A stretch of 32,000 nucleotides of DNA from Novosphingobium rosa NBRC 15208 (GTDB taxonomy: Bacteria > Pseudomonadota > Alphaproteobacteria > Sphingomonadales > Sphingomonadaceae), in NCBI RefSeq assembly GCF_001598555.1, contig NZ_BCZE01000001.1, positions 167,980-199,979 on the forward strand. The letters run 5' to 3'. The translations under genes and the position numbers were made by a program. The notes beneath the pieces are model-generated. The model made no database searches. It saw nothing but the letters and a program-made list of their open reading frames with translations, and was not told the DNA's origin. Shown one piece after another: positions 14,306 through 30,408 of the stretch (the stretch's first letter is position 1; every line of letters starts with the position of its first letter).

Positions 14306-14650
14306 TCACAGCTTGTAGGCGCAGACCTTCGCCGTGGCGTTCGCCCAGCAGGCTCCTTCGCGCTTCAGCAGGCCCAGTTCGCTATGGGCATGGGTGGAGC
14401 CGGGCTCCTCATTCCAATAACCATGGGCGCCATCGTCATCCATGTTGACATAGGCGAAATATTTGGACCGATGCTTGTCCGAAACGCCAATCGAAAATGA
14501 CCCCTGCTTGTCATTGATGGTGACTTCGCAAGGACCGTTCAGATAGCTCTTATGCTTGACTTCCAGCACGCAGCGCCCGGTCTTGGCCTGCGCCATGCCT
14601 GGCGACAGCGCAGCGCCCAGCGCCAGAAGAAACAAAGGCGTGAACTTCAT
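14306..14650 (-). CDS. Small secreted 4-Cys protein (114 aa); candidate periplasmic immunity protein for the upstream lysozyme-like gene
   Basis: Signal peptide MKFTPLFLLALGAALSPGMAQA. The mature part has four Cys. ATG 14650 is separated by 1 nt from the upstream stop (14652-14654). Lower GC than the flanking catabolic genes. Confidence 0.6.
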   Translation of the reverse strand: MKFTPLFLLALGAALSPGMAQAKTGRCVLEVKHKSYLNGPCEVTINDKQGSFSIGVSDKHRSKYFAYVNMDDDGAHGYWNEEPGSTHAHSELGLLKREGACWANATAKVCAYKL

Positions 14651-14651
14651 C

Positions 14652-15173
14652 TCAATGACTCCCGACGGGATGAAGACGGTTGTATTCGGCCAGAGCGATG
14701 CGGGCATGGTTCTGCCGATCCGCCTCATTGGGAATGCCCGGCCCCTCGAAGGAGATCATGAAGGCATGCGTCGCCTTGTTCAGATCGCTCTGCTTTTTCA
14801 GCGTGGTGATCGAGCGGCGGTAGGAGGTGTTCAGCTCATGCTCCAGGTAGCCAAGACTGGCCGCCTCGCTGTCGCGCTGCAGATGATGCGCATCGGCCCA
14901 GGCGAAGAAGGTCTTGCGGCGCGGGCCTGTCCATTGCGCCCAACCGTAGCCGCCCTTGTTCTCGGCCTGACCACGCTCGTGATAGGCGGTGAAATTGGCG
15001 CTTTCGGTGCCCAGATTGCCGACGATGGCGGCGGCTTGCACCGGCGTCAGTTCGAAGGCGATGATCAGGTCACCCATGATCGCGGGGGCAAGGCGAATGA
15101 AATTCGGCATCGTCGAAGGCCGATGATGCCGGGGCCGACGCCGATGCCTGATATGCGGTTTCGCTGTCGTCAT
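14652..15173 (-). CDS. Phage-tail-lysozyme-like peptidoglycan hydrolase domain protein, no signal peptide
   Basis: Motif block LTPVQAAAIVGNLGTESANF...NKGGYGWAQWTGPRRKTFFAWA resembles the phage tail lysozyme (Phage_lysozyme2-type) domain. Start is uncertain: the longest ATG is 15173, but its first 21 aa (MTTAKPHIRHRRRPRHHRPST) look non-native. Internal ATGs at 15110 and 15077 are alternatives. Confidence 0.6.
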   Translation of the reverse strand: MTTAKPHIRHRRRPRHHRPSTMPNFIRLAPAIMGDLIIAFELTPVQAAAIVGNLGTESANFTAYHERGQAENKGGYGWAQWTGPRRKTFFAWADAHHLQRDSEAASLGYLEHELNTSYRRSITTLKKQSDLNKATHAFMISFEGPGIPNEADRQNHARIALAEYNRLHPVGSH

Positions 15174-16807: not shown

Positions 16808-17503
16808 TTACCCCCGCGCCAGTCCAAAAGTCCGAGACGCCGGCGCGATGGGCCCCTGCTTTTCGAGCAACACCGCCGATCCCTCCCCCGTCTTGTAGAA
16901 ACCCTCGTCAAACGCCGCGATTCCCAGGGCCTTGAGATAGGTCTCCAACAGCGGCCCGGTGAAACGCTTCTTGATCGACCTTTCGGAATAACGCGCCACA
17001 TCCTCGAAAGGCTGGACTTCGCCATCGGCCGAAAAGGCCCATTTGCTGCCATCGAAGGAGGCCGAGACCGCACGCAGGATGTTCAGGAAATCGGTCTTGT
17101 GGGGCGCGAAGATTTCCATCACCGTCGCGGGCAGGCGATCACCGCCCCCCTCCTCCGGCACATAGGTCATGCGCAAGGCATCGCAGGCAAGCACTTCGGC
17201 AAGATGAGACACAGCCGAAAAGGCATCCGTTCCCTCATGGCCATTGTCCCAAAAGGTCACCCATTCCGAATGGGTTGGCACGAAGAGGTAGCGGCGGCGC
17301 TCCACGCTGGTCAGGGGCAGCAAGGCCTGCAAGACCTCGCCCAGATCGCCCTGCGGGCGGGATTCCACCAGGGTCACCCCCCGCTTGGCCTGAATTCCTC
17401 CCTGCCAATCGAGGAAAGCGCGGGTGGCCCGCGCCGCATCGCAGCGCAAAAAGCCGATGGTATCGGTGATGGGCGCCAAATTTCCAGAGAAGAGTTCCTG
17501 CAT
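16808..17503 (-). CDS. Hypothetical cytoplasmic protein (231 aa); candidate cognate immunity protein of the Rhs toxin
   Basis: ATG 17503 lies 1 nt after the Rhs stop (17505-17507). No signal peptide or TM segment. No family recognised. Position is typical of rhs immunity genes. Confidence 0.6.
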   Translation of the reverse strand: MQELFSGNLAPITDTIGFLRCDAARATRAFLDWQGGIQAKRGVTLVESRPQGDLGEVLQALLPLTSVERRRYLFVPTHSEWVTFWDNGHEGTDAFSAVSHLAEVLACDALRMTYVPEEGGGDRLPATVMEIFAPHKTDFLNILRAVSASFDGSKWAFSADGEVQPFEDVARYSERSIKKRFTGPLLETYLKALGIAAFDEGFYKTGEGSAVLLEKQGPIAPASRTFGLARG

Positions 17504-17504
17504 C

Positions 17505-20500
17505 TTACCTTACCGTTTTGAGAATCACATGGCCGTCCGGATCGTTGGACTTCAGCCGCACTTCATGGCCCGGCCCGCGTGTCGAACTGGGCGTATCATA
17601 TTCGACATAAACCCTTTTGCCGTTTGCGTCAGTATATTGCAGGTCCGGGCGATTGACACCCACGCGCTCGCCGGCGGCATTGACCTGCTGCTGGTTGACG
17701 CGGAAATCGGTGGCGCCCTCGGCACGCGCTGCGGCAATATCGGCCTGCATCGCCGCGTTCTGCGTCGGGCTCTGGCCGATCGGCCGCCTCAACGACAAAG
17801 CGGCAGGCGGCTTGGGATTGACCGCAATATCCTGCGGCAATCGCGCGGGCGGCGGCGTGGTAAAACGCGATGCGATCAACTTGCCCGCAGGGCCCGCCAC
17901 CAGCCCCATCCCGGTGGCGATGCCCGCTTCCTTCCAGCTCCAGGGGCGATCCTTGCCCATCAGATTGTCGATGCCCCAATCGGCGACATAGCTGGCAAAG
18001 CCGCTGACCGCGCCCACCCCGGCATAAATCGCATAACCGGCAGCGGCAGGCACGAAGAGGAATGGAACCGAGGCCAGCGCGCCAACCAGCGCGCCCTTGG
18101 CGGCGGCGGCCAGAATGCAGGTGAAGCAGAACTCCTTCTGGGTCAGCGCTTCATTCAGGCCAAAGCCCACGGCGCCTGCCGCCGCCCCCGCCGCCAGCAG
18201 AACGAGCGCCGGGGCCGCGATCGGCGCCAGCAGCACGCCCACCGCCACCCCCACGGCAATCGCCGCCACCGCAGAAAGCGCCTGCTGCCACCACAGCCCC
18301 AGCGGGTCGGCGCGATTGAGCGGATCATTGCCGACATAGGCATAGAGGTTGATCCCCCCCGCCACCCCCATGGGATCGCGGCTGAGATAACGCCCCAGCG
18401 CCGGGTCATACATGCGATGGCGATTGTAATGCAGCCCGGTTTCGGCATCGTGATAATGCCCCGGCAGGCGCAACGGCTGATGCCTGCCACCCACCAGAAC
18501 CTGCAGAGCCCCGAAAGCCGAACGCTCGGCCTCCCAGATCACCCGGCCCTGAGCATCGGTCAGGCGGGTCGGCGTACCGATCGGGTCGACATGATAATGG
18601 CAGATGCCCGCAGCATCGCGCTGGAACAGCGGCATGTGGCTGTCCGGCCACCAGGCATAATCGCGGACCTGCCCGGTCGCGCCCGGCTGCCAGCCATCCG
18701 CGCCGGTCTCGATCTCGCGGATCAGCTGCTCGCCCGCCCAGATAAAATGGGTGACGCGCGTGGTGACGCTGCTCTCCACCGTCTTGCGAATACGGCGGCC
18801 CAACGGATCATAGGCGAAGCGGACCACCAGCCCCCGGCCATCCTCCGCGCGGATCAGACGATCGAAGCCATCCCATGCATAGCGCCAATGTACGGCCCCG
18901 CTGCGCTCCACCAGATTGCCGCGCGGATCATAGACGAAATGCTCGGAGCCCTGCGCCACCATCTGGTTCAGCGCATTGAAACGCGCCTCTCCGGCAGGCC
19001 CGGCGATGCGGTTGCCCGCGCCATCATAGGCGAAAGCCTCGCGCGCGCCATCGCCGCGCCGGAGCGCCAGCACCTGCCCCCCGGCATCGTAATCGACCCG
19101 CAGCGCGCCGAGCCGACTGTCCTCGCGCGCCACCAGCCGGTCCTCGGCGTCATAGGCATAGCTTTGTTGGAACGCGGCGCCCTCCGGCGTTTCCAGACGG
19201 CGCCCCGTGGGCAGGCCGACCTGATCCTGCCATGTCGTGGCCACCAGCCCGCCGGGGGAGAGCATCCGCCACCCCGCCTCGTCGGGAGCATAGTCGATGG
19301 CGTGGCGCGCGCCGCTCCAGTCGGTGATGGCGCAGAGGCGCTGATCGGCATCGCGCGCGTAACGCATGGCGCTGCCATCGGGCCAGACGAGGCCAACAAG
19401 CACACCCGCGTCGTCATAGTCATAACGAATGGCCTGATCGCCCAGACGCTGATCGGTCCGCCGTTCCTCGATCAGGCGGCCCTGCGCATCGTAGCGCCAG
19501 GCAAGGTCGATCTCGGCATTGCGCGCCGCCACCAGAAGCCCGCGCGCATCGTAGGTGAAGCTGGCCAAGGCGCCGCCAGCGGCCATCCGGGTAACCTGCC
19601 CCGCCTCATTGCGGCTGAGATCGATCCGCAAGCCATCGGCGCGGATCAGCTGCTGAAGCGCCCCGGCGGGATCGAAGCTGTAGCTTTCGCGCGAGCCATC
19701 GGCATGGGTCTGACCCTCGGGCCTCTGGCCGACGCCATAATGAAAGCGTGTGCTGTTGCCATTGCCGTCGCTGATGGCGGCCAGCGCGTCACCCTGATAG
19801 TCGAAGCGTTCGATCCGCCCCAGCCTGTCGCGCTGGGCGGTGACAAAGCGCCCTTGGGGATCGCGTGCGGAGAGAGCGCCCTCGTCGCGATAGGCCATGC
19901 CACGGAATGTCCCATCGGGAAAATCCATGCGCTCCAGCCGGTTGATGATATCGTGCCGGGCCCGAAACCGTTCACGCCCGCCGCGCGAGACAGAGGCGAT
20001 GTTGCCGCGCCGGTCATAGGCCAGATCAAGCGCCAGCCCCGATGGCATGCGCAAGGCAGCCAGCTTTCCGGAATCACCATGAGCCATATGCCACTGCCGA
20101 CCCAGCGCGCTGGTGACACAGGCAAGCTGTCCGTCGCCACCAAAACTCATGCGCGTGGCGCCGCCGCCGGGGCTGTCGATCAGCAGATCGTCGGACTGCG
20201 GGTCTCGCCGGGGGGGATGGGGCAGGCCCGCAAAACTTTCCGCCAGTCGGTCGCTGCCCGCGCGCCGCCGAAAGGCCGCGATATGGGCCCGGCTCATGCG
20301 TTGGCGCGCGCCCACCGGCAGGCGCGGCGGCAGGCGCAGGATCTCAGGCGCGCGATAGGCCATATGGCCATTACCCGCGCCATCGACGGTGAGGAAGGCC
20401 TGCACCGGGCCAAAGAAAGCGTTCAGCTCATCCACCGTCGAGCTGCGCAGATAGGCGGGCAGCAGGCGCGGGTCGTGAAAGCGAAAGATCCAGTCCTCGC

Positions 20501-20870
20501 CCTCTGGCGAAGAGACCTTGATAAAGCGCCGCAACTGGCGATGCACCGCCTTGAAACCGGCGCTGGAGAGCAGGAAATAGCCCCATGGCTGGCCGTCGAA
20601 ACGGCGCGCGATGTCTTGCGCCATCCCTGCATCGACATGCAGCAGATAAGGCGCCTTGTCGCGATAGGCGGTCGCCGCCCAGCCCTGATAAAGGCAGGCT
20701 CCGCGCCCCGGCCCCGCCGCTTCCGCCAGGCCCGGCACATCGGGCGAAACGCAGCCGTCGATCAGCGCATAAAGCTGCCCCGCCGCCGCCCATCCGGCAA
20801 CCGACTGCGCCCGCACCGGCGCGAAGAGCACCGGTGATGCGTGGTCGGCAGGGGGCGGCGTCTCGGCCAT
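17505..20870 (-). CDS. Rhs-family T6SS effector with N-terminal DUF4123-like adaptor domain and polymorphic C-terminal toxin
   Basis: ATG 20870 with GGGAGA RBS. Residues ~30-165 match DUF4123 hallmarks (LYALIDG..., APYLLHV, WIFRFHDPRLLPAYL, FFGPV). Residues ~280-859 are YD repeats (YDRRGN, FDYQGD, FTYDARG, YDAQGR, YDYDDAG, YAYDAEDR, VDYDAGG, FAYDGAGN, VYDPRGN, FAYDPLGR). The canonical Rhs core end is HYNRHRMYDPALGRYLSRDPMGVAGGINLYAYVGNDPLNRADPLGL. A 262-aa variable tail follows. Confidence 0.9.
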   Translation of the reverse strand: MAETPPPADHASPVLFAPVRAQSVAGWAAAGQLYALIDGCVSPDVPGLAEAAGPGRGACLYQGWAATAYRDKAPYLLHVDAGMAQDIARRFDGQPWGYFLLSSAGFKAVHRQLRRFIKVSSPEGEDWIFRFHDPRLLPAYLRSSTVDELNAFFGPVQAFLTVDGAGNGHMAYRAPEILRLPPRLPVGARQRMSRAHIAAFRRRAGSDRLAESFAGLPHPPRRDPQSDDLLIDSPGGGATRMSFGGDGQLACVTSALGRQWHMAHGDSGKLAALRMPSGLALDLAYDRRGNIASVSRGGRERFRARHDIINRLERMDFPDGTFRGMAYRDEGALSARDPQGRFVTAQRDRLGRIERFDYQGDALAAISDGNGNSTRFHYGVGQRPEGQTHADGSRESYSFDPAGALQQLIRADGLRIDLSRNEAGQVTRMAAGGALASFTYDARGLLVAARNAEIDLAWRYDAQGRLIEERRTDQRLGDQAIRYDYDDAGVLVGLVWPDGSAMRYARDADQRLCAITDWSGARHAIDYAPDEAGWRMLSPGGLVATTWQDQVGLPTGRRLETPEGAAFQQSYAYDAEDRLVAREDSRLGALRVDYDAGGQVLALRRGDGAREAFAYDGAGNRIAGPAGEARFNALNQMVAQGSEHFVYDPRGNLVERSGAVHWRYAWDGFDRLIRAEDGRGLVVRFAYDPLGRRIRKTVESSVTTRVTHFIWAGEQLIREIETGADGWQPGATGQVRDYAWWPDSHMPLFQRDAAGICHYHVDPIGTPTRLTDAQGRVIWEAERSAFGALQVLVGGRHQPLRLPGHYHDAETGLHYNRHRMYDPALGRYLSRDPMGVAGGINLYAYVGNDPLNRADPLGLWWQQALSAVAAIAVGVAVGVLLAPIAAPALVLLAAGAAAGAVGFGLNEALTQKEFCFTCILAAAAKGALVGALASVPFLFVPAAAGYAIYAGVGAVSGFASYVADWGIDNLMGKDRPWSWKEAGIATGMGLVAGPAGKLIASRFTTPPPARLPQDIAVNPKPPAALSLRRPIGQSPTQNAAMQADIAAARAEGATDFRVNQQQVNAAGERVGVNRPDLQYTDANGKRVYVEYDTPSSTRGPGHEVRLKSNDPDGHVILKTVR
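17508..18293 (-). other. Rhs C-terminal toxin region: glycine-zipper/TM-rich segment plus unclassified ~80-aa terminal domain
   Basis: Residues 860-1121. Hydrophobic G/A-rich stretch WWQQALSAVAAIAVGVAVGVLLAPIAAPALVLLAAGAAAGAVGFGL...GIATGMGLVAGPAGKLIA. Pro-rich linker TTPPPARLPQDIAVNPKPPA. Terminal domain ATDFRVNQQQVNAAGERVGVNRPDLQYTDANGKRVYVEYDTPSSTRGPGHEVRLKSNDPDGHVILKTVR. Confidence 0.7.
18294..20033 (-). other. YD/RHS-repeat shell region ending at the DPLGL autoproteolysis motif
   Basis: Residues ~280-859. DPLGL is at residues 855-859 by my count, so the last shell codon ends at nt 18294. Confidence 0.8.
20376..20783 (-). other. DUF4123-like (Tap/Tec T6SS adaptor) domain encoded in cis at the Rhs N-terminus
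   Basis: Residues ~30-165 of the 1121-aa product; motifs as listed for the CDS. Boundaries are approximate. Confidence 0.6.
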
Positions 20871-20879
20871 CGGTCTCCC

Positions 20880-21212
20880 TTATACCGCCACGAAGGGCGC
20901 GCCGCTGGCATAGGCGCGATCGAGCGTGGTGCGACGTGGCGGAGCGCCATCGCCGATCAGCACGGTCACCGCGCCGCTCGCCAGCGTGCCGCCATGGCAG
21001 GAGGTGTCGCCGATGCGGGCGGCCTCATTGTTGCCGATCTTGACTGTCGGGCAGCCCGCCTCGATCTGGGCCTTGCTGCCGCAATCGAGCTGGTCGCCCT
21101 TGCGCGCGGCAGGCTGGCCCATGATCAGCACGGTCGGCTCGCCCGAGACGATGGTCGCCACATTCTTTTGCGGGCAGCTTTCCTGATCGCTTATGCGTGC
21201 GGCGGGCGGCAT
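20880..21212 (-). CDS. PAAR-domain protein (T6SS spike tip), stand-alone, 110 aa
   Basis: Three PAAR-type motifs: MPPAARISD, GQPAARKGD, NEAARIGD. GAVTVLIG end strand, then a ~25-aa C-terminal extension. ATG 21212 with GAGGGAG RBS. Stop lies 9 nt before the Rhs ATG. Confidence 0.9.
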   Translation of the reverse strand: MPPAARISDQESCPQKNVATIVSGEPTVLIMGQPAARKGDQLDCGSKAQIEAGCPTVKIGNNEAARIGDTSCHGGTLASGAVTVLIGDGAPPRRTTLDRAYASGAPFVAV

Positions 21213-21227
21213 GGCGGCATCTCCCTC

Positions 21228-22079
21228 TCAATGCCCATCGGCGGACCAATGCGGCGGATCGGTGGCCAACTTGCGCACCCCATAGGTCGCGCCGACCCGG
21301 TGCAGATCGCCATTGCTGCTGCCCGAGCGCGGGTGGTCGATCCACACGGTCTTGCCCGAGGCATCGGTGACCGTGATAGCCTGATCCCAGCTGATCGTCA
21401 TATCGATGGCCGTCCCATCGATATGGTTCGAGGTGAGCGAGGGCTTGAACCGTATATGGAACAGATTGACCATCGCCTGCGCCGCCTTGCGCGAGGCGCG
21501 CGCATCGCCATGATCCCAGTGAATATCCACCTCCTTGTTCTCGGGCACGGCATCGGGCTTGATCTGGCCATGGGCGACCATCCAGGCGTAATGCATCAGC
21601 CATGCGCGGTTTCGGTTGCGCCGCGTGGAGCTGACCCGCACCGAGGCCGAGGCGCGCCTGAGCATGGCCACGAAACTGTCGACCTGCACCGCGAAGCCGG
21701 GCGCCAGATCGCTGATCCTGTCGCTGTTGGGAAAACGCGCCTGATTGGCGCGAAACCATGCCGCGCCGCTGAGGTTGCGCTGCACCGCCTGCGCCGCCAG
21801 CCTCTCACGCAGCAACGTGGAGGGCGAACTGTCGGACAGGCGGCTGACCATCGCGCCGCCCGGATCGATCCGCCCGCCCGAGGGCATACCCATCACGAAG
21901 GACTGATAACGGCCGATGGCGGTCATGGTTGGTTCGTCCATCATGCCATCGGAGCGCAGCACGCCGAGGCCCAGATCGCCCACGCGTGTGTTGAGGCCCT
22001 GCTGGATGGCCGCGACATCCTCCCGCGCATTGACGCCACCACGACCGACAGAAGAGGCGAGAGTGATGTCGGGCATCAT
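21228..22079 (-). CDS. LAS/M15-type zinc peptidase (VanY-like) with N-terminal peptidoglycan-binding domain, no signal peptide; candidate T6SS cell-wall effector
   Basis: N-terminus GRGGVNAREDVAAIQQGLNTRVGDLGLGVLRSDGMMDEPTMTAIGRYQ resembles PG_binding_1. Exact SxHxxGxAxD motif SNHIDGTAID (nt 21402-21431). Upstream SSTRRNRNRAW and downstream DPPHWSADGH fit M15 Zn-ligand/catalytic positions. GGAGG RBS. ATGA overlap with the upstream gene. Confidence 0.75.
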   Translation of the reverse strand: MMPDITLASSVGRGGVNAREDVAAIQQGLNTRVGDLGLGVLRSDGMMDEPTMTAIGRYQSFVMGMPSGGRIDPGGAMVSRLSDSSPSTLLRERLAAQAVQRNLSGAAWFRANQARFPNSDRISDLAPGFAVQVDSFVAMLRRASASVRVSSTRRNRNRAWLMHYAWMVAHGQIKPDAVPENKEVDIHWDHGDARASRKAAQAMVNLFHIRFKPSLTSNHIDGTAIDMTISWDQAITVTDASGKTVWIDHPRSGSSNGDLHRVGATYGVRKLATDPPHWSADGH

Positions 22080-22393
22080 TCGGCCTCCGTGTCGTAGCGC
22101 GCCAGCACAGCCATGATCCTGGGTTGCCCGGCATGGGCTTTTTTGAGTCGCACCAGCTGCGTATCGGTGCCGCTGCAGTCGCGCTTGACCTGCTGTTCAA
22201 GCTGCCGGGCGCGGGCACCATCATAGGGCTCCTCGCCCCTTGCGTGGTCGCAGCTTTCGCGGCGGGTTATGAAGGCTTGCACGTCAGCAGGCATGGCCGC
22301 GCCCTGAGGTGAGGCCGCCAAGGCCCCGCCGGCATGGCAGGCCAGCAGCGCGACGGGCAGCGCCCATCCTGTCTTGTGGCGGAGAGCACTCAT
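22076..22393 (-). CDS. Small exported protein, possible lipoprotein (105 aa); candidate immunity for the M15-like effector
   Basis: Signal sequence MSALRHKTGWALPVALLAC with a lipobox-like LLAC. The mature part has two further Cys (RRESCDHARGEEPYD...KRDCSG). Its stop overlaps the effector ATG (ATGA). Confidence 0.55.
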   Translation of the reverse strand: MSALRHKTGWALPVALLACHAGGALAASPQGAAMPADVQAFITRRESCDHARGEEPYDGARARQLEQQVKRDCSGTDTQLVRLKKAHAGQPRIMAVLARYDTEAE

Positions 22394-22398
22394 TCGAT

Positions 22399-22902
22399 CT
22401 ACATATCCAGAACTTTAGCCTGCTTTTCGTAGAAAGCGGCTGAAGTAGCGTTGCCCTGCGCCTTGTAACGCCGGCTGACAGCCTTGGCGGCAAGGGTGGC
22501 GATCTGGAAGGCATGGTCACGCTCGTCAAAGGTAACCTCGCCCTGCCCGACATCGCCGTTCACAAAGCGCCCGACCATAAAACCGCCGGTGTTGGCGCGG
22601 GCGCTGGCGAAATCGATCACCCCCATGGTGGGGATGCCAGCGCGGAACTCGCCATAAAAGGCCTCGCCGCTGGTCTGACCGTCCCGCCGCCGCAGCATGC
22701 CCAGCCCAGAGGCCTTGCCGCCGGGGCAATCGCCGGTCCAATACGTCGGACCGGCGGGCAAGGAGAGAGGCGCCACAAAGCGGCACCAGGAGACAGGGTC
22801 ATGCGACCAGACCAGCGCAGCGGCTGGAGCCTGCGCACGCAGCGCGGCGGCGCCGCCAACACAGGCGGCAGCCAGCGCAAGGTGGAGGCAGGCGCCTCTC
22901 AT
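22399..22902 (-). CDS. Secreted MORN-repeat-like protein (167 aa), function unknown
   Basis: ATG 22902 gives signal peptide MRGACLHLALAAACVGGAAALRAQA. YWTGDCPGGKASGLGMLRRRDGQTSGEAFYGEFRAGIPTMGV resembles MORN repeats. The longer ORF to 23121 would overlap clpV. Confidence 0.55.
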   Translation of the reverse strand: MRGACLHLALAAACVGGAAALRAQAPAAALVWSHDPVSWCRFVAPLSLPAGPTYWTGDCPGGKASGLGMLRRRDGQTSGEAFYGEFRAGIPTMGVIDFASARANTGGFMVGRFVNGDVGQGEVTFDERDHAFQIATLAAKAVSRRYKAQGNATSAAFYEKQAKVLDM

Positions 22903-22930
22903 CACCACGGTTTTTCCCCGGCCATGCCGC

Positions 22931-25627
22931 TTACTCCACCAGGTTCTCAAGCTGACCGGAGAGCTCAACGGGTTCGGGCTGCGCTTGCCTGTCGGTAAAG
23001 GCATAATGGAAGCCGTCCGGCCCTGCCGAGACTTCGATCCCCGAGACTTCTTCGCCCCGCATCTGGCGTTCCAGCAGCTGGATCGACATTTCGGGCAGCA
23101 GCGTGTTGGTGAGGATCGCATCGATCATGCGCCCGCCCGAGGCCACCTCATTGCAGCGCGAAACGATCAGGTCGACAACCGATGCAGTGAACGTCAGCGC
23201 GATCTTGTGGTTCTCGGCGATACGCTTCTCGATGCGCTTCAACTGCAGACGCACGATGCCCGAGAGCATGTCGGGGCTCAGCGGATAATAGGGAAGCACC
23301 AGCAGGCGGCCCAACAGGGCGGGCGGGAAGGTTTTCAGCAGATCGGGCCGCAGGGCCCCCGCCAGCGCTTCGGGATCGGGCTTCATCTCCTCGTCCTCCG
23401 ACAAGGTCATCACCAGATCGGTTCCAACATTGGAGGTCAGCAGGATGATGGTGTTCTTGAAATCGATAAAGCGGCCTTCGCTGTCATTCATGAAGCCCTT
23501 GTCGAAGACCTGAAAAAACATCTCATGGACGTCAGGATGGGCCTTCTCCACCTCATCGAGCAACACCACCGAATAGGGACGGCGACGAACCGCCTCGGTA
23601 AGAACCCCTCCCTGCCCGTAACCGACATAGCCCGCAGGCGCGCCCTTCAGCGTCGAGACGGTATGCGCCTCCTGAAATTCGCTCATGTTGATGACGATCA
23701 GCGAGTCATCGCCCGAGAACAGCAGTTCGGCCAGCGCATGCGCCGTCTCGGTCTTCCCCACGCCCGAGGGGCCGCAGAGCATGAAGACGCCGACCGGCTT
23801 GTTGGGATTGTCCAGCTTGGCCCGGCTGGTCTGGATGCGCTTAGCGATGGCATCCATGGCATGGTCCTGCCCGACCACCCGCGCCTTCAACTGATCGGCA
23901 ATGGTCAGCACGCTCTGGATCTCGTCCTTGACCATGCGGCCCACCGGAATGCCGGTCCAGTCGCCCACCACCGCCGCAATGGCATCCTGATCGACCACGC
24001 CAAAGACCATCGGTGTATCGGCCTGCACAGCGCGCATTTCGGCCAGAGCGGTTTCGAGCGCGGCCTTCAACGGGGCCTCATCCTGGCCCCCGTCCTGCCG
24101 CGCGTTGCGAAGGGCATCACGGGCAGCAGCCACACCGGCCAGCGCGTCCTTCTCCCGCTCCCACTTAGCGGTGACTGTCTCCAGCGCCTCGCGCGCAGCG
24201 GCAATCTCTTCCTCGATGCGTTCCAGGCGATCATCGCTGCGGTAATGATCCGAGGCCTCGCGAGAGACAACGTCACGCTCGATCTCAAGCAGTTCGAGGC
24301 GACGGCGGCGATCCTCCACCATGGCGGGCGTGGCATGCTGCGAGACCGCCACACGCGCGCAAGCCGTATCGAGCAGGCTCACCGCCTTGTCCGGCAATTG
24401 CCGCGCGGGCACATAACGCTGCGACAGCAGCACCGCCGCCGCCACAGCCTCATCCAGCACGGTGACGCCATGATGCTTCTCCATCATCGGCGCGACCGAG
24501 CGGATCATGTCGATGGCCTTGCCGGTCTCGGGCTCGCCCACATCGACGGTCTGGAAACGGCGGGTGAGCGCCGGATCTTTCTCGAAATACTGGCGATATT
24601 CGGCATAAGTCGTGGCCGCGATGGTGCGCAGCCGCCCGCGCGCCAGCGCAGGTTTGAGCAGATTGGCCGCATCCCCCGTGCCCGCCTGACCGCCCGCGCC
24701 GATCAGCGTATGTGCCTCATCGATGAACAGGATGATCGGCACCGGCGAGCTTTCCACCTCATCGATCACCTGACGCAGGCGCTTCTCGAACTCGCCCTTC
24801 ACCCCGGCCCCGGCCTGCATCAGCCCGATGTCGAGCGAGCGCACGGTCACACCCTCCAGCGCGGGGGGCACATCGCCATCGGCGACGCGGCGGGCGAAAC
24901 CCTCGGCCACCGCCGTCTTGCCCACGCCTGCTTCGCCGACAAGGATCGGATTGTTCTGGCGGCGGCGCAGCAGAATATCGACCACCTGCCGGATTTCCGC
25001 ATCGCGCCCGATGATGCGGTCGATCTCTCCAGCGCGGGCCCTGGCGGTCAGATCGACGGAGTATTTGGCCAGCGCCTCGCCACGCCCGGCGGCAACAGTG
25101 CCCGGATCGCCCTCGCCCGCCGCAGGCGCCGGAGCGCTGCCTTCGCTGGTTTCAGCCGAGGCGGCGATCATCGCGTCAAAGCTGTTGCCCAGCTTATCGG
25201 CGCTGACCTTGCGCCACTCGCCGCTCAGCACATAGAGCGCATTGCGCAGGGTCGGTGTCTTCAGCATGCCATAGAACAGATGGCCCGAGCGCACCCGGCT
25301 CGCCCCGAATTGCAGCGAGGCATAGAGCCAGCCCTTCTCGATGGCTTCCTCGATCTGCGGCGCGAAATCGGAAATGGCGCTGGCCCCGCGCGGCAGGGCA
25401 TCGAGCGCCGCCACCACATCCTGCGTGAGCCTTGCATCGTCCAGCCCGAAGCTGCTGCGGATCGCGGCGAGATCGTTGCGCGGATCCTGCAGCAAAATAT
25501 GCACCCAGTGGACCAGCTCGACATAGGGATTGCCGCGCATCTTGCAGAAGCTGGTCGCGGTCTCGATGGCCTTGAGCGGCACCGGGCCAAGGCGCTCGAA
25601 CAGGGCCGTACGGCTGATCTCGGACAT
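22931..25627 (-). CDS. tssH: T6SS AAA+ ATPase ClpV/TssH
   Basis: 898 aa. ClpV-type N-domain (MSEISRTALFERLGPVPLKAIETATSFCKMRGNPYVELVHWVHILLQ). Two Walker A boxes (GEAGVGKTAV, GPSGVGKTETA). Walker B as ILFIDEAH and VVLLDEVEKAH. Confidence 0.95.
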   Translation of the reverse strand: MSEISRTALFERLGPVPLKAIETATSFCKMRGNPYVELVHWVHILLQDPRNDLAAIRSSFGLDDARLTQDVVAALDALPRGASAISDFAPQIEEAIEKGWLYASLQFGASRVRSGHLFYGMLKTPTLRNALYVLSGEWRKVSADKLGNSFDAMIAASAETSEGSAPAPAAGEGDPGTVAAGRGEALAKYSVDLTARARAGEIDRIIGRDAEIRQVVDILLRRRQNNPILVGEAGVGKTAVAEGFARRVADGDVPPALEGVTVRSLDIGLMQAGAGVKGEFEKRLRQVIDEVESSPVPIILFIDEAHTLIGAGGQAGTGDAANLLKPALARGRLRTIAATTYAEYRQYFEKDPALTRRFQTVDVGEPETGKAIDMIRSVAPMMEKHHGVTVLDEAVAAAVLLSQRYVPARQLPDKAVSLLDTACARVAVSQHATPAMVEDRRRRLELLEIERDVVSREASDHYRSDDRLERIEEEIAAAREALETVTAKWEREKDALAGVAAARDALRNARQDGGQDEAPLKAALETALAEMRAVQADTPMVFGVVDQDAIAAVVGDWTGIPVGRMVKDEIQSVLTIADQLKARVVGQDHAMDAIAKRIQTSRAKLDNPNKPVGVFMLCGPSGVGKTETAHALAELLFSGDDSLIVINMSEFQEAHTVSTLKGAPAGYVGYGQGGVLTEAVRRRPYSVVLLDEVEKAHPDVHEMFFQVFDKGFMNDSEGRFIDFKNTIILLTSNVGTDLVMTLSEDEEMKPDPEALAGALRPDLLKTFPPALLGRLLVLPYYPLSPDMLSGIVRLQLKRIEKRIAENHKIALTFTASVVDLIVSRCNEVASGGRMIDAILTNTLLPEMSIQLLERQMRGEEVSGIEVSAGPDGFHYAFTDRQAQPEPVELSGQLENLVE

Positions 25628-26659
25628 TTACAGTTCCCCCAAGGATGCGTGAGCCGGTTTCATGCGGCGCAGATGCGCGTCGGACCGGATGATGTCGGAT
25701 GGTTTCGGGCTGAGCCAACCCGTCCAGCCCAGCCGCGTGCGGCCATCGAGGCGCGCGGGCGGCACTTCGCTTTGCGGAATATCGATGCGGATATCCCATT
25801 CCAGATGGCTGGGCGCAAAGGCATCGAGCGCTTCCGAGGCAATGGTGAAGCGCGGCTGGCCGGGCAGCAGTTTTTCGAACTCGCCAAAGTTGCGCGCGCC
25901 GATCACCACGCTGAAACTGTCCGAGGCGGTACGGATGCGGCTGCCCAGCACGACATCCCGCCCCAAAGTGGCGAAACCCTTGCCGAGGCGGCTGCGGTCT
26001 TCTGCCTCGATCGCGCGCCAGCGCGGCTGATATTCGATGACGCGCACCGGCTGGCCGAGCAGATGGCCCAGCGAATCCTCGATGCCGATGGCGCTGCGCC
26101 GCGAGGCGAAGAGCGAGGCATAATGCACCCGCGCCCGTGCCGGAAAAGCCGCGTGATCGGAAACGTCTTCCGTCGCGCCCGACAGGAACGCCAGATAAGC
26201 GCCAAAGCGGTCATCGGCGGGGCGGTCGGCCTGCACCGCAGGTTGGGAATCGGCCCATGCGCGGTAGAAGAACTGCAACATGCGGTTCGCCAGCACATCC
26301 AGCCAGCGACCGAAGGGCCTCTGCCTGGCATAGCGATGCTCGAACGCCGCGAATTCGGTCAGATGCACCGGCAGCGGCCCCATTGGGCCGGTCAGCCCCA
26401 GCCAATAGCCGTTGATCTGCGCGCGCTGGTGGCGAAACTCCACCGAATGCAGCGTGGGCGCGGGAAAATGCATCGCCGGGATTTGCGCCAGATCGACGAT
26501 ACTCTGATCCGGGCGACGCGCTTCACCCAGACGCGGCAGATCGGGCGCGCGCGCCTCCGCACCGCGCACCGCCGGGAACATCCCGAAGAGGCGCGCCTTC
26601 TCCCTGATCCTTTCGAGGAAGGTCAGATGGTGTGGCGGCGACCCATGCGCGGCGGCCAT
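25628..26659 (-). CDS. tssG: T6SS baseplate subunit TssG
   Basis: 343 aa, directly abutting the clpV start. Size and position after tssF fit TssG. The N-terminal ...LFGMFPAVRGAEA... stands in for the usual F-F-Q-A-V-R-L-L-E block. 37-nt overlap with the tssF end. Confidence 0.85.
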   Translation of the reverse strand: MAAAHGSPPHHLTFLERIREKARLFGMFPAVRGAEARAPDLPRLGEARRPDQSIVDLAQIPAMHFPAPTLHSVEFRHQRAQINGYWLGLTGPMGPLPVHLTEFAAFEHRYARQRPFGRWLDVLANRMLQFFYRAWADSQPAVQADRPADDRFGAYLAFLSGATEDVSDHAAFPARARVHYASLFASRRSAIGIEDSLGHLLGQPVRVIEYQPRWRAIEAEDRSRLGKGFATLGRDVVLGSRIRTASDSFSVVIGARNFGEFEKLLPGQPRFTIASEALDAFAPSHLEWDIRIDIPQSEVPPARLDGRTRLGWTGWLSPKPSDIIRSDAHLRRMKPAHASLGEL

Positions 26660-28479
26660 TGCGCGACATCCCCCTCGTTCGGACTATGGAAGTGGCATTC
26701 GGTGAACGCGTTGATGCTGGCGAATTCGGCCAGAAAGCGCTCCAGAACGGCGGTGAAGAGGAACATGCCGCTCTTGTCGAAAGCGGCGTCGTCCAGCTTG
26801 ATGCGAATGCGATGGCCGCGCGCCAGCGCCATGCGGTCCAGCCCCGGCACGCGGCGCATCACCTTGGTTGAACGGATCGCCAGAACGCCGTCGATCTGGC
26901 GGCGCAGGGCGGCTTCATCCTGCTGGCCGTAAAGCGCCAGATGGTCACGCAGGGCGGAAGGGTCGTCATGATCTTCCGAGGCCAGCGTGGCGTAATTGGG
27001 GGTAAGATGGGCAATCACCCGCCACGCCGCATCGCCCAGCCCCAGCGGCGGGCGCGGGCGCGTGGGCGCACGCAGCACCGTGACGGCGCGAACCGGAACG
27101 CCCGAAACGGTGAAATGCTGGTCGCCGCGAAACGACAGCAATTCGGGCAATTCGCGGTTGGTGACCAGCGCGCGCACCGCCAGCTCATGCACATCGTCCA
27201 GCCGCGTAGCATCGCCAGGCGAGGTCAGGCTGAGCCACGTATCGGTACCGACATATTCGCTGCGGCGGCGCAGGCGTCTTTCGCGGGTGGAGAGGCGGCG
27301 CGGGCGCAGCTGCGTGGAGTAGAACAAAGCCTCGCGCCAGTCATAGAGCAAGGCTCCGAAAGCATAGAGCGGCGCGACGGTCTTGGGATCGAGATTGTCC
27401 CGCGCATAGGCCTTGACGTCGAGCAGGCGGAACACCTCGAAATCATTGCGCCTGGTGCGGTCCGGGATGACATGGAATTCATGCTCATGCGGGCGGACCT
27501 GCACGCGGTCGAGCTGCTTTTCGAACAGATTGATCGCGGGGGTGGCGAAAAGCCTGAAGTTCGTCTTGTCCACCGCGCGCGCCAGCGTGGACGAGGCGCG
27601 CGAGAACAGCAGCACCACATCGCACATCTGCGGCGAGGCGCGAAAGGCCCGATCCAGTCCCTTCAACCGCGTGAACAGAAACCTTTCGGGGCACGCGAAA
27701 TATTCCGACAACAGCCGATAGCCGCGAAAGGAGCGCTGCTCTGCCGGAAGCAGGGCCTCATCATCCTCGAAGCCGATCTGTTCGGGCAGCGGCAGCGCCA
27801 TCCAGGGCGCATTGGCCGGGGCATCCGCCGAGCGCGCCAGCACACCCAGCGTCTCGCCGATGATCTGGCGGTAGAGTTCATTGGGCACAGCCTCTGCGCC
27901 ATGGAGATGGATCGCCAGATCCTTCACCTTGATCTGCGGCAGATCGGCGCCCGGCGTGGCGGCAAAGCGCAGGCGCAGGCCAGCCTCGGCGCGGATCTCG
28001 CCCGAACCGGCGTAGGACGCCACCGCCGCGCGAGTGGAAAGATACTCCGCCTCGACGATCGCCAGCGGCCACAGGGTGACATCGTGTCCGGTGCGGAACA
28101 TCACCGGCGCATTGTCCTGTGTGTTGGCCACCAGTTGCGTGCCGCGCGGCACATGATGGCCCGCCAGCAGGTTCTGCTCGCCCTGCTTGGGTTCGAAACC
28201 GGCGATGCAGATCGAGGGCATCGGGGCCAGATAATGCGGCTGGATCGCATGCAACAGATGCGAGGTGAACTCGGGATATTGATCCGCGAGCTTGAGCTGC
28301 ACCCGCGCGCCCAGAAAAGCCACGCCTTCCAGCAGGCGCTCGACGTAGGGGTCGGGGTCGGTCGGCGTCTTGAGGCCAAGACGGCCCGCGACGGTCTCAT
28401 GCTCCTCGCCGAATTCGCGCGCGGCTTCGCGCAGATAGGCCAGCTCATCGTTGTAATGGCGCAGCAGGCGCGGGTCCAT
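26623..28479 (-). CDS. tssF: T6SS baseplate subunit TssF
   Basis: 618 aa beginning MDPRLLRHYNDELAYLREAAREFGEEH, the hallmark TssF N-terminus. Located between tssE and tssG. Confidence 0.95.
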   Translation of the reverse strand: MDPRLLRHYNDELAYLREAAREFGEEHETVAGRLGLKTPTDPDPYVERLLEGVAFLGARVQLKLADQYPEFTSHLLHAIQPHYLAPMPSICIAGFEPKQGEQNLLAGHHVPRGTQLVANTQDNAPVMFRTGHDVTLWPLAIVEAEYLSTRAAVASYAGSGEIRAEAGLRLRFAATPGADLPQIKVKDLAIHLHGAEAVPNELYRQIIGETLGVLARSADAPANAPWMALPLPEQIGFEDDEALLPAEQRSFRGYRLLSEYFACPERFLFTRLKGLDRAFRASPQMCDVVLLFSRASSTLARAVDKTNFRLFATPAINLFEKQLDRVQVRPHEHEFHVIPDRTRRNDFEVFRLLDVKAYARDNLDPKTVAPLYAFGALLYDWREALFYSTQLRPRRLSTRERRLRRRSEYVGTDTWLSLTSPGDATRLDDVHELAVRALVTNRELPELLSFRGDQHFTVSGVPVRAVTVLRAPTRPRPPLGLGDAAWRVIAHLTPNYATLASEDHDDPSALRDHLALYGQQDEAALRRQIDGVLAIRSTKVMRRVPGLDRMALARGHRIRIKLDDAAFDKSGMFLFTAVLERFLAEFASINAFTECHFHSPNEGDVAQWPPRMGRRHTI

Positions 28480-28485
28480 GAGGGC

Positions 28486-29019
28486 TTACTCCCGCACATC
28501 GACGGCGACGGTTTCCGGGTCCACCTCGGTCCGGAATTTTACCGGCATGGCCTGAGCGGCAGCCGTGATGTCAGCGCGGATCACAAAGGTGATGGTGTTG
28601 GGCTTGTCATGGCTTTCGGCCGGTTCGACACTGAGCGAATCCTCGCCCAGACGCGGCTCATACTGGCGGATCGCCTTGCGGATTTCCCGCGCGCGGTTGA
28701 GGATGGCCCGCCGTGTCAGCGGCTTGCCCGCCAGATCGCTGAGCCCGTAATTCAGCACCGAGCTTTGCACATGCGGATAGGGCTCCAGATCATGGAGCGC
28801 TTCCAGATTGGTGGTGTTGAGCAACCAGGCAAGCTCGCGCCGGATCGTGCTGCGCAGCGCAGCCTCATTGAAGCGGTCGAGCCGGGGCACTGTGTAATGC
28901 CGGAACTTCTCGCGCGAGACCTCGGGCGTATCCGAATGGATGTCTTTCAGCCCGGAAATGTCGATGTCCGCCACAAGCTTGTCGAACAGCGTGGGCGTGA
29001 GACGGTGACTGACGGCCAT
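28486..29019 (-). CDS. tssE: T6SS baseplate subunit TssE (gp25-like)
   Basis: MAVSHRLTPTLFDKLV...IRRELAWLLNTTNLEA...VLNYGLSDLAGK is a typical GPW/gp25 signature. ATG 29019 is preferred over the TTG at 29025 used by the ORF track. Confidence 0.9.
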   Translation of the reverse strand: MAVSHRLTPTLFDKLVADIDISGLKDIHSDTPEVSREKFRHYTVPRLDRFNEAALRSTIRRELAWLLNTTNLEALHDLEPYPHVQSSVLNYGLSDLAGKPLTRRAILNRAREIRKAIRQYEPRLGEDSLSVEPAESHDKPNTITFVIRADITAAAQAMPVKFRTEVDPETVAVDVRE

Positions 29020-29021
29020 GG

Positions 29022-29807
29022 TCAATCGAAGCTCAGGTCGCGCAGGCTCAGCAGCCCGCGATCCTCGCCATTCGAAAGCGTCCAGAGGCGCTGGCCCGAC
29101 CCCAAATCGCCAAAGTCATGCCCCCGCCATTGCGTTTCACGGGCGAGGCGCTCTCTATTGTCCTGTGCAGCCTCGCTGCCCGGATAGCGGGCAGGCAGGA
29201 AACCCGCCACCGACTGCCCGGATTTGAACGCAATCTGCACCGGATACCACACCAGATCGCGCAGATCGCGCGGCCCCTCGCTGGTGATGCTGGCGACCTG
29301 ATCGAAAGGCTGGAGCCCATAGCGCCCGCCGATGATGGCCTCGAAAGCAGGGCCGAAGCGCGCATCGGCATCGGCGATCCACCCGAAACTTTCACCGTTG
29401 AAACGACCGGGAGCATCGGGCGCGGCATCGAAAGCAGCATCGCGCGCGGCAATAGCGTCATGCGCGCGGCCATTGGTCAGATGATGCAGCGCATCGATGA
29501 CACCATCGCACCAGTCGGACGCCACATGCTGACGCGCCCTTTGACGCCCGGCAAAGACCTCCGCACGTTCAAGCTCGGCATCGATCGCCTGACCATAGGC
29601 GGTTGCCAGCATCTGCGCTTCACCCGAAAGCTGGGCAAGGGCCTGCAATTGCTTGCGAGCCTTGTCCCACTCGCCGGCCACAGCCAGCAACTGGAACAGG
29701 AACATGCGCGCCGCCTGATCGGCGGGCTGCGCCCGGACGGTATCGACCAATGCGGCACGCGCACCTTCGACATCGCCCGAACGCAGCAAAGTATCGGCAT
29801 CCGCCAT
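29022..29807 (-). CDS. tagJ: T6SS accessory protein TagJ (ImpE/SciE family)
   Basis: 261 aa. N-terminal TPR-like LLRSGDVEGARAALVDTVRAQPADQAARMFLFQLLAVAGEWDKA. C-terminal FGWIADADARFGPAFEAIIGGRYGLQPF...DLVWYPVQI...LPARYPGS matches ImpE conservation. Confidence 0.85.
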   Translation of the reverse strand: MADADTLLRSGDVEGARAALVDTVRAQPADQAARMFLFQLLAVAGEWDKARKQLQALAQLSGEAQMLATAYGQAIDAELERAEVFAGRQRARQHVASDWCDGVIDALHHLTNGRAHDAIAARDAAFDAAPDAPGRFNGESFGWIADADARFGPAFEAIIGGRYGLQPFDQVASITSEGPRDLRDLVWYPVQIAFKSGQSVAGFLPARYPGSEAAQDNRERLARETQWRGHDFGDLGSGQRLWTLSNGEDRGLLSLRDLSFD

Positions 29808-29815
29808 GGTTCGGA

Positions 29816-30310
29816 TCAGCTGGCGACGTTCTGGCGAATGTCGTAGCTGGCAGTGATGACGCCGCCATCCTTGCCGCCGCTGCGGTTCTGCGGCTGATAG
29901 TCGAAGGTCACCTTGGCAGTGTTGAACACGACCGATTCCATGATGGCATCGCCGTGGCTGGCGCCCTGATTGTCCACTGAAGAAACGATGACGTCTTCCA
30001 GCGTGATCTTGTAATAGACCAGCGGATTGGTGCCATCACCGGCCTTCTGCGAGTAAATGATGACCTGCGGAATATGACGGCCCGAAGCGCAGGCGCTGAA
30101 CAGTTTGGCCGAAGACTTGTCGACTTCCTTGGTGATCGAGATGTCGCGGATTTCTGCCTTGCCCGAACCGCCACCGGCACCGCCGGTGTGGAAGGAACCG
30201 TGCTGGGCCGCGCCGAAGTTGAAGGAAATGATATCGATTTCCTTCTCGTGACCCTTCTTCTGACTTTCACCGTCGATCCCGTCGATCTTCAGGAACAGAT
30301 CAACTGCCAT
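29816..30310 (-). CDS. hcp: Hcp (TssD) T6SS inner tube protein
   Basis: MAVDLFLKIDGIDGESQKKGHEKEIDIISFNFGA... is a textbook Hcp N-terminus. 164 aa. AGGGGA RBS. Confidence 0.95.
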   Translation of the reverse strand: MAVDLFLKIDGIDGESQKKGHEKEIDIISFNFGAAQHGSFHTGGAGGGSGKAEIRDISITKEVDKSSAKLFSACASGRHIPQVIIYSQKAGDGTNPLVYYKITLEDVIVSSVDNQGASHGDAIMESVVFNTAKVTFDYQPQNRSGGKDGGVITASYDIRQNVAS

Positions 30311-30408
30311 TAGAAATCCCCTAAGTCATGAACAACAAATCGAACTTAAATTCCGATTGTTGCAATAGCTCGAAATCTTATAAGTTAAAAATCAATTCGT
30401 CGCGAAAA
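30311..30408 (-). promoter_or_regulatory. AT-rich 98-bp tssC-hcp spacer (about one-third G+C by hand count)
   Basis: This is the only sizeable gap inside the otherwise overlapping or abutting core operon. GATTT occurs four times on the minus strand. It is preceded by the stem CGCGAA/TTCGCG (30401-30422), whose loop contains the tssC stop codon. Confidence 0.3.

Follow-up and report, generated by a model that had tools for sequence, protein, structure and literature searches.

A DUF4123 adaptor domain fused to an Rhs effector suggests a PAAR-led loading module in the type VI secretion system of Novosphingobium rosa and its relatives

Introduction

How is a type VI secretion system (T6SS) effector of the Rhs type brought to the secretion spike when it carries no spike domain of its own, is served by no separate adaptor gene and has no vgrG gene nearby? 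This question is raised by a 32-kb stretch of the Novosphingobium rosa NBRC 15208 genome (hereafter the window, in whose numbering all coordinates are given), where one minus-strand open reading frame (ORF) joins an N-terminal DUF4123 domain to an Rhs effector, directly behind a gene for a small PAAR protein.

DUF4123 proteins are regarded as single-protein, non-secreted adaptors (PMC10673891). In the bilobed Tap proteins the two lobes have different partners, a C-terminal helix-turn-helix of VgrG for the N-lobe and the Rhs cage for the C-lobe (Colautti et al. 2024, PMC11582642), and the C-terminal motifs of VgrG bear a conserved cysteine pair (PMC11582642). The same paper describes TecT as an N-lobe-only DUF4123 protein whose binding partner is a C-terminal extension on its PAAR, and co-TecT as the protein that binds the effector TseT (PMC11582642); PAAR4, TecT, co-TecT and TseT belong to a remote paar island that serves the H2-T6SS of Pseudomonas aeruginosa (Burkinshaw et al. 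2018, cited after PMC11582642, PMC6684961 and PMC11925235). DUF4123 has also been found at the C-terminus of an 'evolved' VgrG (bioRxiv 10.1101/2021.10.07.463556). The MIX, FIX and RIX domains are N-terminal loading domains that occur fused or stand-alone and are secreted (PMC10673891). Orphan operons of PAAR and DUF4123 have already been reported, a PAAR survey placed DUF4123 genes near some PAAR subtypes, and a census of 2020 counted 2.7% of DUF4123 proteins as multidomain, with FHA as the commonest partner. Full-text literature searches found no paper describing a DUF4123-Rhs fusion.

The DUF4123 domain and the Rhs cage

An earlier note on this DNA had read the N-terminus of the Rhs protein as DUF4123-like and fused to its cargo, and our data confirm this. 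Residues 33-150 belong to Pfam family PF13503 with E=5.6e-24 and 85.1 bits, the curated cut-off being 25.8, and the alignment takes in profile positions 1-118 of 119; the same ORF contains RHS repeats (PF05593, RHS_repeat, E=1.9e-33) and the RHS core (PF03527, residues 756-789, E=3.1e-10). The invariant residues of the DUF4123 domain include D38, C40, W96, G97, the stretch FRFxDPR (129-135) and FFG (152-154). The note had also described the Rhs protein as lacking a built-in tip, which agrees with our searches of this protein for a PAAR Pfam match, the string 'PAAR' and the prePAAR motif AARxxDxxxH, none of which was found. DUF1795 (Eag) was not found by Pfam among the neighbouring ORFs. The tailed PAAR protein that the note placed 9 nt upstream is present as a 110-aa ORF matching PF05488, with a tail that we measured at 22 aa. 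As expected of a DUF4123 adaptor, the domain is coded directly downstream of a tailed spike protein; it is not stand-alone, since it belongs to the 1121-aa effector ORF. The features of the locus are as follows.

17505-20870, minus strand: Rhs ORF, 1121 aa
20880-21212, minus strand: PAAR ORF, 110 aa
20949-21212, minus strand: PAAR fold, PAAR residues 1-88 (Pfam PF05488, E=1.5e-18; AlphaFold2, pLDDT 91.6)
20883-20948, minus strand: PAAR C-terminal tail, residues 89-110, proposed DUF4123 docking ligand
20871-20882, minus strand: PAAR stop codon TAA and 9-nt spacer with the Shine-Dalgarno sequence GGGAGA (direct reading)
20352-20831, minus strand: DUF4123 N-lobe, Rhs-protein residues 14-173, Pfam 33-150 (PF13503, AlphaFold2)
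20151-20351, minus strand: linker and N-terminal element of the Rhs half, residues 174-240 (family alignment, AlphaFold2)
18309-20150, minus strand: short YD-repeat (Rhs) beta-shell, residues 241-854 (Pfam, AlphaFold2, Foldseek)
18288-18308, minus strand: Rhs autoproteolysis motif DPLGLWW, residues 855-861 (motif search)
17871-18287, minus strand: Gly/Ala-rich hydrophobic helical module, residues 862-1000 (hydropathy, per-region identity)
17508-17870, minus strand: variable C-terminal toxin region, residues 1001-1121 (family comparison)
16808-17503, minus strand: putative immunity gene, 231 aa (position only)
22931-31899, minus strand: tssC, hcp, tagJ, tssE, tssF, tssG and clpV, upstream (Pfam)

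The AlphaFold2 (AF2) model of the Rhs protein, made from an alignment of 112 sequences, is confident at residues 8-860 (mean predicted local distance difference test score, pLDDT, 82.6; predicted template modelling score, pTM, 0.74). Residues 14-173 are predicted to form a mixed alpha/beta domain of alternating strands and helices with pLDDT >90, and the modelled domain agrees with the mixed alpha/beta N-lobe as defined in PMC11582642. After it come a linker, a single long helix (194-211) and, at 229-822, a YD beta-shell whose pLDDT is mostly >90; across the junction of domain, linker and cage (residues 160-240) pLDDT is 87-94. In the family alignment residues 174-240 comprise a variable linker followed by the conserved stretch R..VG.R-F.LR..H.AAFR (helix 194-211) and an RRD..D(L/I)L element. 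Past residue ~173 neither the AF2 model nor the alignment contains a helical, effector-binding C-lobe of the Tap type, and the domain is accordingly not bilobed.

Three acidobacterial loci (L037, L041 and L047) have split operons in which PAAR, DUF4123 and Rhs are separate genes. Their adaptor spans the equivalent of window residues ~29-163, and the alignment with their separate Rhs protein begins at residue ~197 in L047 and at ~249 in L037 and L041. These breakpoints indicate that the fusion joins an N-lobe-only adaptor to a complete Rhs protein, and the fused domain resembles the N-lobe-only members of the TecT type. Foldseek matched the modelled Rhs shell to Tse5 (8cp6_B, 8qja_B), RhsP (8h8a_A), the Advenella VgrG-Rhs core and RhsA, with a root-mean-square deviation of 3.3 Å over 650-700 columns and E down to 1e-43; for Tse5 and RhsP the TM-score is about 0.55 of the target. 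Since the shell covers ~55% of the matched Rhs cores, the cage is short; its predicted fold is that of a closed beta-cage.

Recurrence of the fusion

We found that the architecture is not a one-off but that of a family of at least 28 sequence clusters which is already annotated automatically in public databases. The Rhs protein of the window is 100% identical to an NCBI entry of Novosphingobium rosa (P0151). Twenty-two clusters at 90% identity (P0151-P0171 and P0004) combine DUF4123 with RHS in Novosphingobium, Sphingomonas, Caulobacter and Belnapia, and beyond them scores drop abruptly to generic Rhs proteins; six more distant proteins complete the count. The fusion thus occurs in Alphaproteobacteria and Acidobacteriota, and also in Myxococcota if two large NCBI contigs that carry metagenome-derived fusion proteins (L006 and L011) are, as we take them to be, myxobacterial. 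When GTDB was scanned with a single genome for each species, 8 species proved to have the fusion, a Pyrinomonadaceae acidobacterium among them.

Searching 1.84 billion representatives exhaustively by HMMER with the N-terminal 243 residues returned 2443 DUF4123 relatives. The best 150 of these include 7 N-terminal DUF4123-Rhs fusions (1082-2121 aa), 65 proteins of <200 aa and 52 of ~300 aa, and no natural PAAR-DUF4123 fusion was found among the same 150. In a neighbor-joining tree a clade of 45 leaves takes in all 28 fused domains along with 15 stand-alone proteins, a topology that does not decide for or against a single origin. In one relative (L001) the DUF4123 and Rhs parts lie in different frames. 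Homology there continues through the frame change, well before the called second start is reached, which makes L001 a disrupted copy.

Three other arrangements of DUF4123 were seen among the relatives. P0006 (2121 aa, L011:10001-16366) is a tandem or nested Rhs, in which, after DUF4123 and a short Rhs (RHS core at 742-775), the same ORF goes on with DUF6531 and another complete set of RHS repeats. A second effector-fused form carries an N-terminal DUF4123 domain (E~1e-28 to 1e-30) on proteins of ~750 aa whose remaining ~600 residues have no Pfam family match; it is found in Bryobacterales and other Acidobacteriota (L038:2603-4843, L044:418-2721, L040, L042, L045, L046, L048 and L049). P0008 (386 aa) contains two tandem DUF4123 domains (two matched stretches, E=5e-61).

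Genomic context

A stand-alone PAAR of 100-125 aa lies directly upstream in every fusion locus examined, and the nearest stand-alone DUF4123 relatives also have a PAAR upstream. The earlier note had seen no vgrG between clpV and the end of the cargo region. Our searches extend this to the whole 32 kb, in which no vgrG was found by Pfam over all large ORFs, by phmmer with a VgrG or by a VgrG profile built from 17 sequences and applied to all ORFs of 50 aa or more. Up to 10 kb on either side of the fusion and less on several short contigs, an intact vgrG is absent from 12 of 16 distinct fusion loci; it is present in L004, L016 and L019, while all that L010 contains is a VgrG-like fragment of 155 aa. 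Several fusion loci are orphan islands amid housekeeping genes. The gene order of the window recurs in Sphingomonas (L012-14), and the acidobacterial L019 has its vgrG between clpV and PAAR.

The stretch from the PAAR stop to the Rhs start reads TAA-GGGAGACCG-ATG. Because this 9-nt spacer holds a Shine-Dalgarno sequence, PAAR and Rhs are two translationally coupled genes. They share a reading frame in the window, where the stop and three codons separate PAAR from the Rhs start, and in L012-14, where one codon does; in L004-L007, L010 and L011 the frames differ, and the shared frame in the window is probably chance. Stop-codon read-through to a PAAR-DUF4123-Rhs product was considered and rejected, since the frame is not shared in distant loci and the spacer has its Shine-Dalgarno sequence.

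The PAAR tail

We found that the PAAR fold ends at residue ~88, with AF2 predicting a beta-rich structure over residues 1-85, and is followed by the 22-aa tail, which consists of a Gly/Pro linker, a helix (90-103) and the end G-A-P106-F107-V108-A-V. The helix is modelled at pLDDT 80-88, followed by an extended end. All fusion-linked PAARs end in a Gly-rich linker and the motif [TA][LM]xxAxxxx[AV]PF[VL] (in the window, TTLDRAYASGAPFVAV). This tail is conserved across phyla in the PAARs upstream of fusion genes, and a profile of the fusion-family tails splits these PAARs from all other ORFs (E<=3e-6 against >=0.9).

We surveyed 64 loci for the C-terminus of the protein that ends just upstream of a DUF4123 domain. 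Similar tails occur upstream of DUF4123 on VgrGs (QALKNAARNAQPVCEICQ), on other PAARs (AAKKAALPFCEKCAT; AAHSGAAFCEA) and on unassigned carriers of 150-400 aa (AAAQGLPFCEECNK), one of which has three tandem copies. Expressed as an Ala-rich helix followed by P-[FVI]-[CV], a regular expression drawn up post hoc, the tail motif is present in 36 of 104 ORFs ending upstream of DUF4123 and in 73 of 4918 background ORFs (Fisher p~9e-36); with the fusion family set aside it is present in 23 of 73 (p~6e-23). Variants that bridge the different tails are found in L003 (PFCEKC) and L037 (AAFCEA), and the CExC tails of the VgrGs match the conserved cysteine pair of PMC11582642. VgrGs directly upstream of DUF4123 bear the tail. 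The three VgrGs that lie upstream of a tailed PAAR and a fused DUF4123-Rhs (L004, L016 and L019) end at the beta-helix and are tail-less.

The tails also differ in their cysteines. The PAAR tails beside fused adaptors (window 20883-20948; L001-L019) have none (APFV), and tails beside stand-alone adaptors, like those of VgrGs, mostly have one or two (AAFCEA, PFCEKC, PVCEIC). Either a C[LM]xxAxxxGAPFV variant or PFCEEC with a Lys/Glu/Arg-rich extension after it is found on many other PAARs. Directly upstream of some DUF4123 genes stand Pfam-less proteins of 160-400 aa ending in PFCE(E/M)C (L038:1761-2597, which has the three tandem motif copies, L051:9295-9780, L068:5846-6394 and L060:8733-9926). 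They might represent a novel type of tail carrier or a spike accessory protein.

Cargo and putative immunity gene

The motif DPLGLWW sits in a highly conserved block of the family alignment. The hydrophobic module behind it (862-1000) is as conserved as the shell, with C915, C918 and G930 invariant, and AF2 places helices in it at low confidence. The C-terminus of Tse5 is a glycine zipper, of which this module is reminiscent, and the module may be a membrane-insertion or translocation device. Residues 1001-1121 share 6-19% identity among family members, with the last ~100 residues varying; AF2 confidence is low here, and Pfam and PDB sequence searches with this region gave no match. Since the module is constant in the family and the toxins beyond it differ, the polymorphic breakpoint lies after the module and not at the cleavage site. 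The toxins at the C-termini of relatives are diverse, among them an ADP-ribosyltransferase, an EC869-like nuclease, further Pfam toxin domains unrelated to these and some without a family, and this diversity marks the group as a polymorphic-toxin family.

The 231-aa gene begins 1 nt past the Rhs stop codon and had no Pfam or PDB sequence match; from its position it is presumed to be the immunity gene. On the syntenic contig of P0004 the immunity slot holds an ADP-ribosylglycohydrolase, matching the ADP-ribosyltransferase toxin of that protein. With a DPxGL-type motif, a variable toxin region and a gene directly downstream, the protein has the outline of an Rhs toxin whose cleavage and toxicity are predicted from sequence.

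Neighbouring genes

The T6SS core genes identified by Pfam begin with tssC (30409-31899) and end with clpV (22931-25627). After clpV the minus-strand order is unassigned genes of 240, 105 and 283 aa, then PAAR, Rhs and the 231-aa gene. The 283-aa protein (21228-22079, minus strand) has a weak PG_binding_1 match (E=0.04) and is strongly kept in Sphingomonas L012-14 (E~1e-122). The 105-aa gene (22076-22393, minus strand) overlaps it and has an N-terminus that looks by eye like a signal peptide. The two are likely a peptidoglycan-targeting effector/immunity pair, and they occupy the place where L019 has its vgrG. At the far end of the cargo region lies a Phage_lysozyme2 protein (14652-15173, minus strand, E=6.6e-25), and behind it an ORF of 140 aa (14306-14728, minus strand) that overlaps it and has a hydrophobic N-terminus; together they may form a second cell-wall effector/immunity pair. 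Long antisense ORFs run on the plus strand opposite Rhs (17424-20837, 1137 aa) and opposite clpV (22697-26932, 1411 aa), as is normally expected of high-GC DNA.

Discussion

Our data suggest that the locus encodes a PAAR-led cargo module, and we consider it probable from the comparative sequence evidence that the fused DUF4123 N-lobe receives the PAAR tail, by which the Rhs cage is tethered to the spike tip. In this proposal the 110-aa PAAR would cap a VgrG trimer encoded elsewhere, and the N-lobe (~14-173) would bind the PAAR tail (helix plus A-P-F-V) in a contact that we liken to those of the VgrG C-terminal helix-turn-helix with the Tap N-lobe and of the PAAR4 extension with TecT. Because the N-lobe is covalently joined to the cage, an effector-binding C-lobe or a co-TecT would not be needed. 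The short cage would carry a cargo freed at the DPLGLWW site and let out once delivered, namely the constant hydrophobic module and then the variable toxin.

A close parallel is the PAAR4-TecT-co-TecT-TseT system. As the papers cited above describe it, that system is likewise a paar-led module away from vgrG, with a C-terminal extension on the PAAR, an N-lobe-only DUF4123 protein that binds it and an effector with its immunity gene downstream. There, however, the adaptor and its effector TseT, which is not of the Rhs type, are distinct polypeptides, and a co-chaperone of its own, co-TecT, contacts the effector, whereas in the window the N-lobe is covalently fused to Rhs, with no gene between them and no equivalent of co-TecT. 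In VgrG14-Tap14-RhsP2 of PA14 and VgrG1-TecI-TseI of Aeromonas dhakensis DUF4123 also serves an Rhs effector, its N-lobe recognises a short C-terminal tail of a spike protein and the Rhs cage is tethered. Those adaptors are bilobed and stand-alone, with the C-lobe on the cage and the tail on a VgrG with a cysteine pair, while the window has no C-lobe, a Cys-less tail on PAAR and a peptide bond as tether. PAAR-Rhs or prePAAR effectors with Eag (DUF1795) chaperones, such as RhsA of P. protegens (7q97), share the PAAR-dependent Rhs cage at the spike tip, the cage fold and the C-terminal autoproteolysis motif. They differ in that PAAR is built into the Rhs polypeptide, which has a prePAAR motif and transmembrane helices at its N-terminus and is served by Eag chaperones, where the window protein has a separate PAAR, no prePAAR motif and its hydrophobic helices past the C-terminal cleavage site. 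Covalently attached domains that specify delivery are also seen in the evolved VgrG with DUF4123, but on the spike side and not on the effector, and in the MIX, FIX and RIX proteins, but with folds unrelated to DUF4123.

Several observations weigh against the proposed docking. The fusion-family tail profile does not reach the VgrG tails, and the Cys-less PAAR tail (APFV) resembles the VgrG tails (P-V/I-C-E-x-C) in a qualitative sense, so that the link between the two rests on bridging variants and shared context and not on a significant alignment. The regular expression behind the enrichment was defined after the data had been seen. In the vgrG-PAAR-DUF4123 (357 aa) loci of Acanthopleuribacter and Holophagae (L027-L029) both VgrG and PAAR are tail-less, and tail docking is therefore not an explanation for every DUF4123 locus. 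Finally, classical DUF4123 adaptors are reported to be non-secreted (PMC10673891), which a fused adaptor contradicts unless it is cleaved off. The adaptor domain might thus be co-secreted or cleaved. That the fused N-lobe leaves the cell with the Rhs cage on the PAAR tip, as a secreted, effector-borne loading domain similar to MIX or RIX and not as an adaptor recycled in the cytoplasm, is a possibility that we think less likely than not. It would fit the Cys-less PAAR tails, which would mean that a redox-triggered release, as proposed for VgrG tails with a Cys pair, has no part here, and it would fit a hydrophobic module that may carry the variable toxin across the inner membrane of the target.

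The earlier note had left two docking sites for the in-cis adaptor, the PAAR tail or a distant VgrG. The comparative evidence best supports the first route, from PAAR tail to in-cis adaptor to Rhs cage. If the N-lobe instead docked on the tail of a distant VgrG, PAAR would only sharpen the spike and its tail would be otherwise used. For bilobed Taps such as Tap6 and Tap14 experiments have established this mode (PMC11582642), and a tailed VgrG may exist elsewhere in the N. rosa genome. We nevertheless find it unlikely here, because the VgrGs adjoining these modules (L004, L016 and L019) have no C-terminal tail to bind; PAAR linkage is moreover strict in all fusion loci and vgrG usually absent from them, the PAAR tail is kept across phyla specifically in the fusion context, and TecT is a precedent for binding a PAAR tail.

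The domain could also be an intramolecular chaperone or plug that folds, stabilises or caps the cage in the manner of VIRN of TseI, with loading through another contact, for example of the cage directly with PAAR. N-terminal Rhs domains are known to act as intramolecular chaperones (PMC7170923), and the pLDDT of the junction (residues 160-240) is compatible with a packed arrangement. Such a role would hardly account for the full conservation of the residues that define the DUF4123 profile, nor for the split operons, in which the same domain is a separate N-lobe-only protein beside a tailed PAAR; effector stability is also reportedly independent of DUF4123 proteins (PMC11582642). We therefore regard a purely chaperoning domain as improbable. 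A sequencing frameshift or decay that joined two genes, an artefact which L001 with its two frames might bring to mind, has a negligible probability: the window ORF is uninterrupted, an identical protein is in NCBI and the single ORF is retained in no fewer than 28 diverged clusters. The family census thereby rules out the frameshift or assembly error that the earlier note had named as fatal to its reading, and L001 is the frameshifted exception.

Returning to docking on the PAAR tail, the novelty that the note claimed for the locus stands in part. The fused DUF4123-Rhs configuration itself appears to be undescribed, but the claim was overstated for the route and the rarity: binding of a PAAR extension by an N-lobe is established in earlier reports (PMC11582642, PMC6684961), and orphan PAAR and DUF4123 operons are known. 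What would be new, judged from the gene structure, is the use of a covalent link to the effector in place of the effector-binding half, that is, the C-lobe or co-TecT.

DUF4123 was known in a bilobed form (Tap), as a split pair (TecT and co-TecT) and fused to the spike (evolved VgrG), and the effector-fused form completes this series. It is a natural experiment which suggests that an N-lobe and a covalent link suffice for loading, and it offers a test of whether the adaptor travels with the cargo and whether a peptide bond stands in for the C-lobe. It also raises the questions of whether the adaptor is exported with its cargo or cleaved first, and of how the effector detaches from the spike. 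The tailed PAAR, the N-lobe-Rhs protein and the immunity gene make up a compact, portable module, usually far from vgrG, that is common in soil Alphaproteobacteria, in Acidobacteriota and, by our presumed assignment, in Myxococcota. The module could be of use as a marker in the search for effectors, and engineered T6SS cargo could be built on it as a scaffold.

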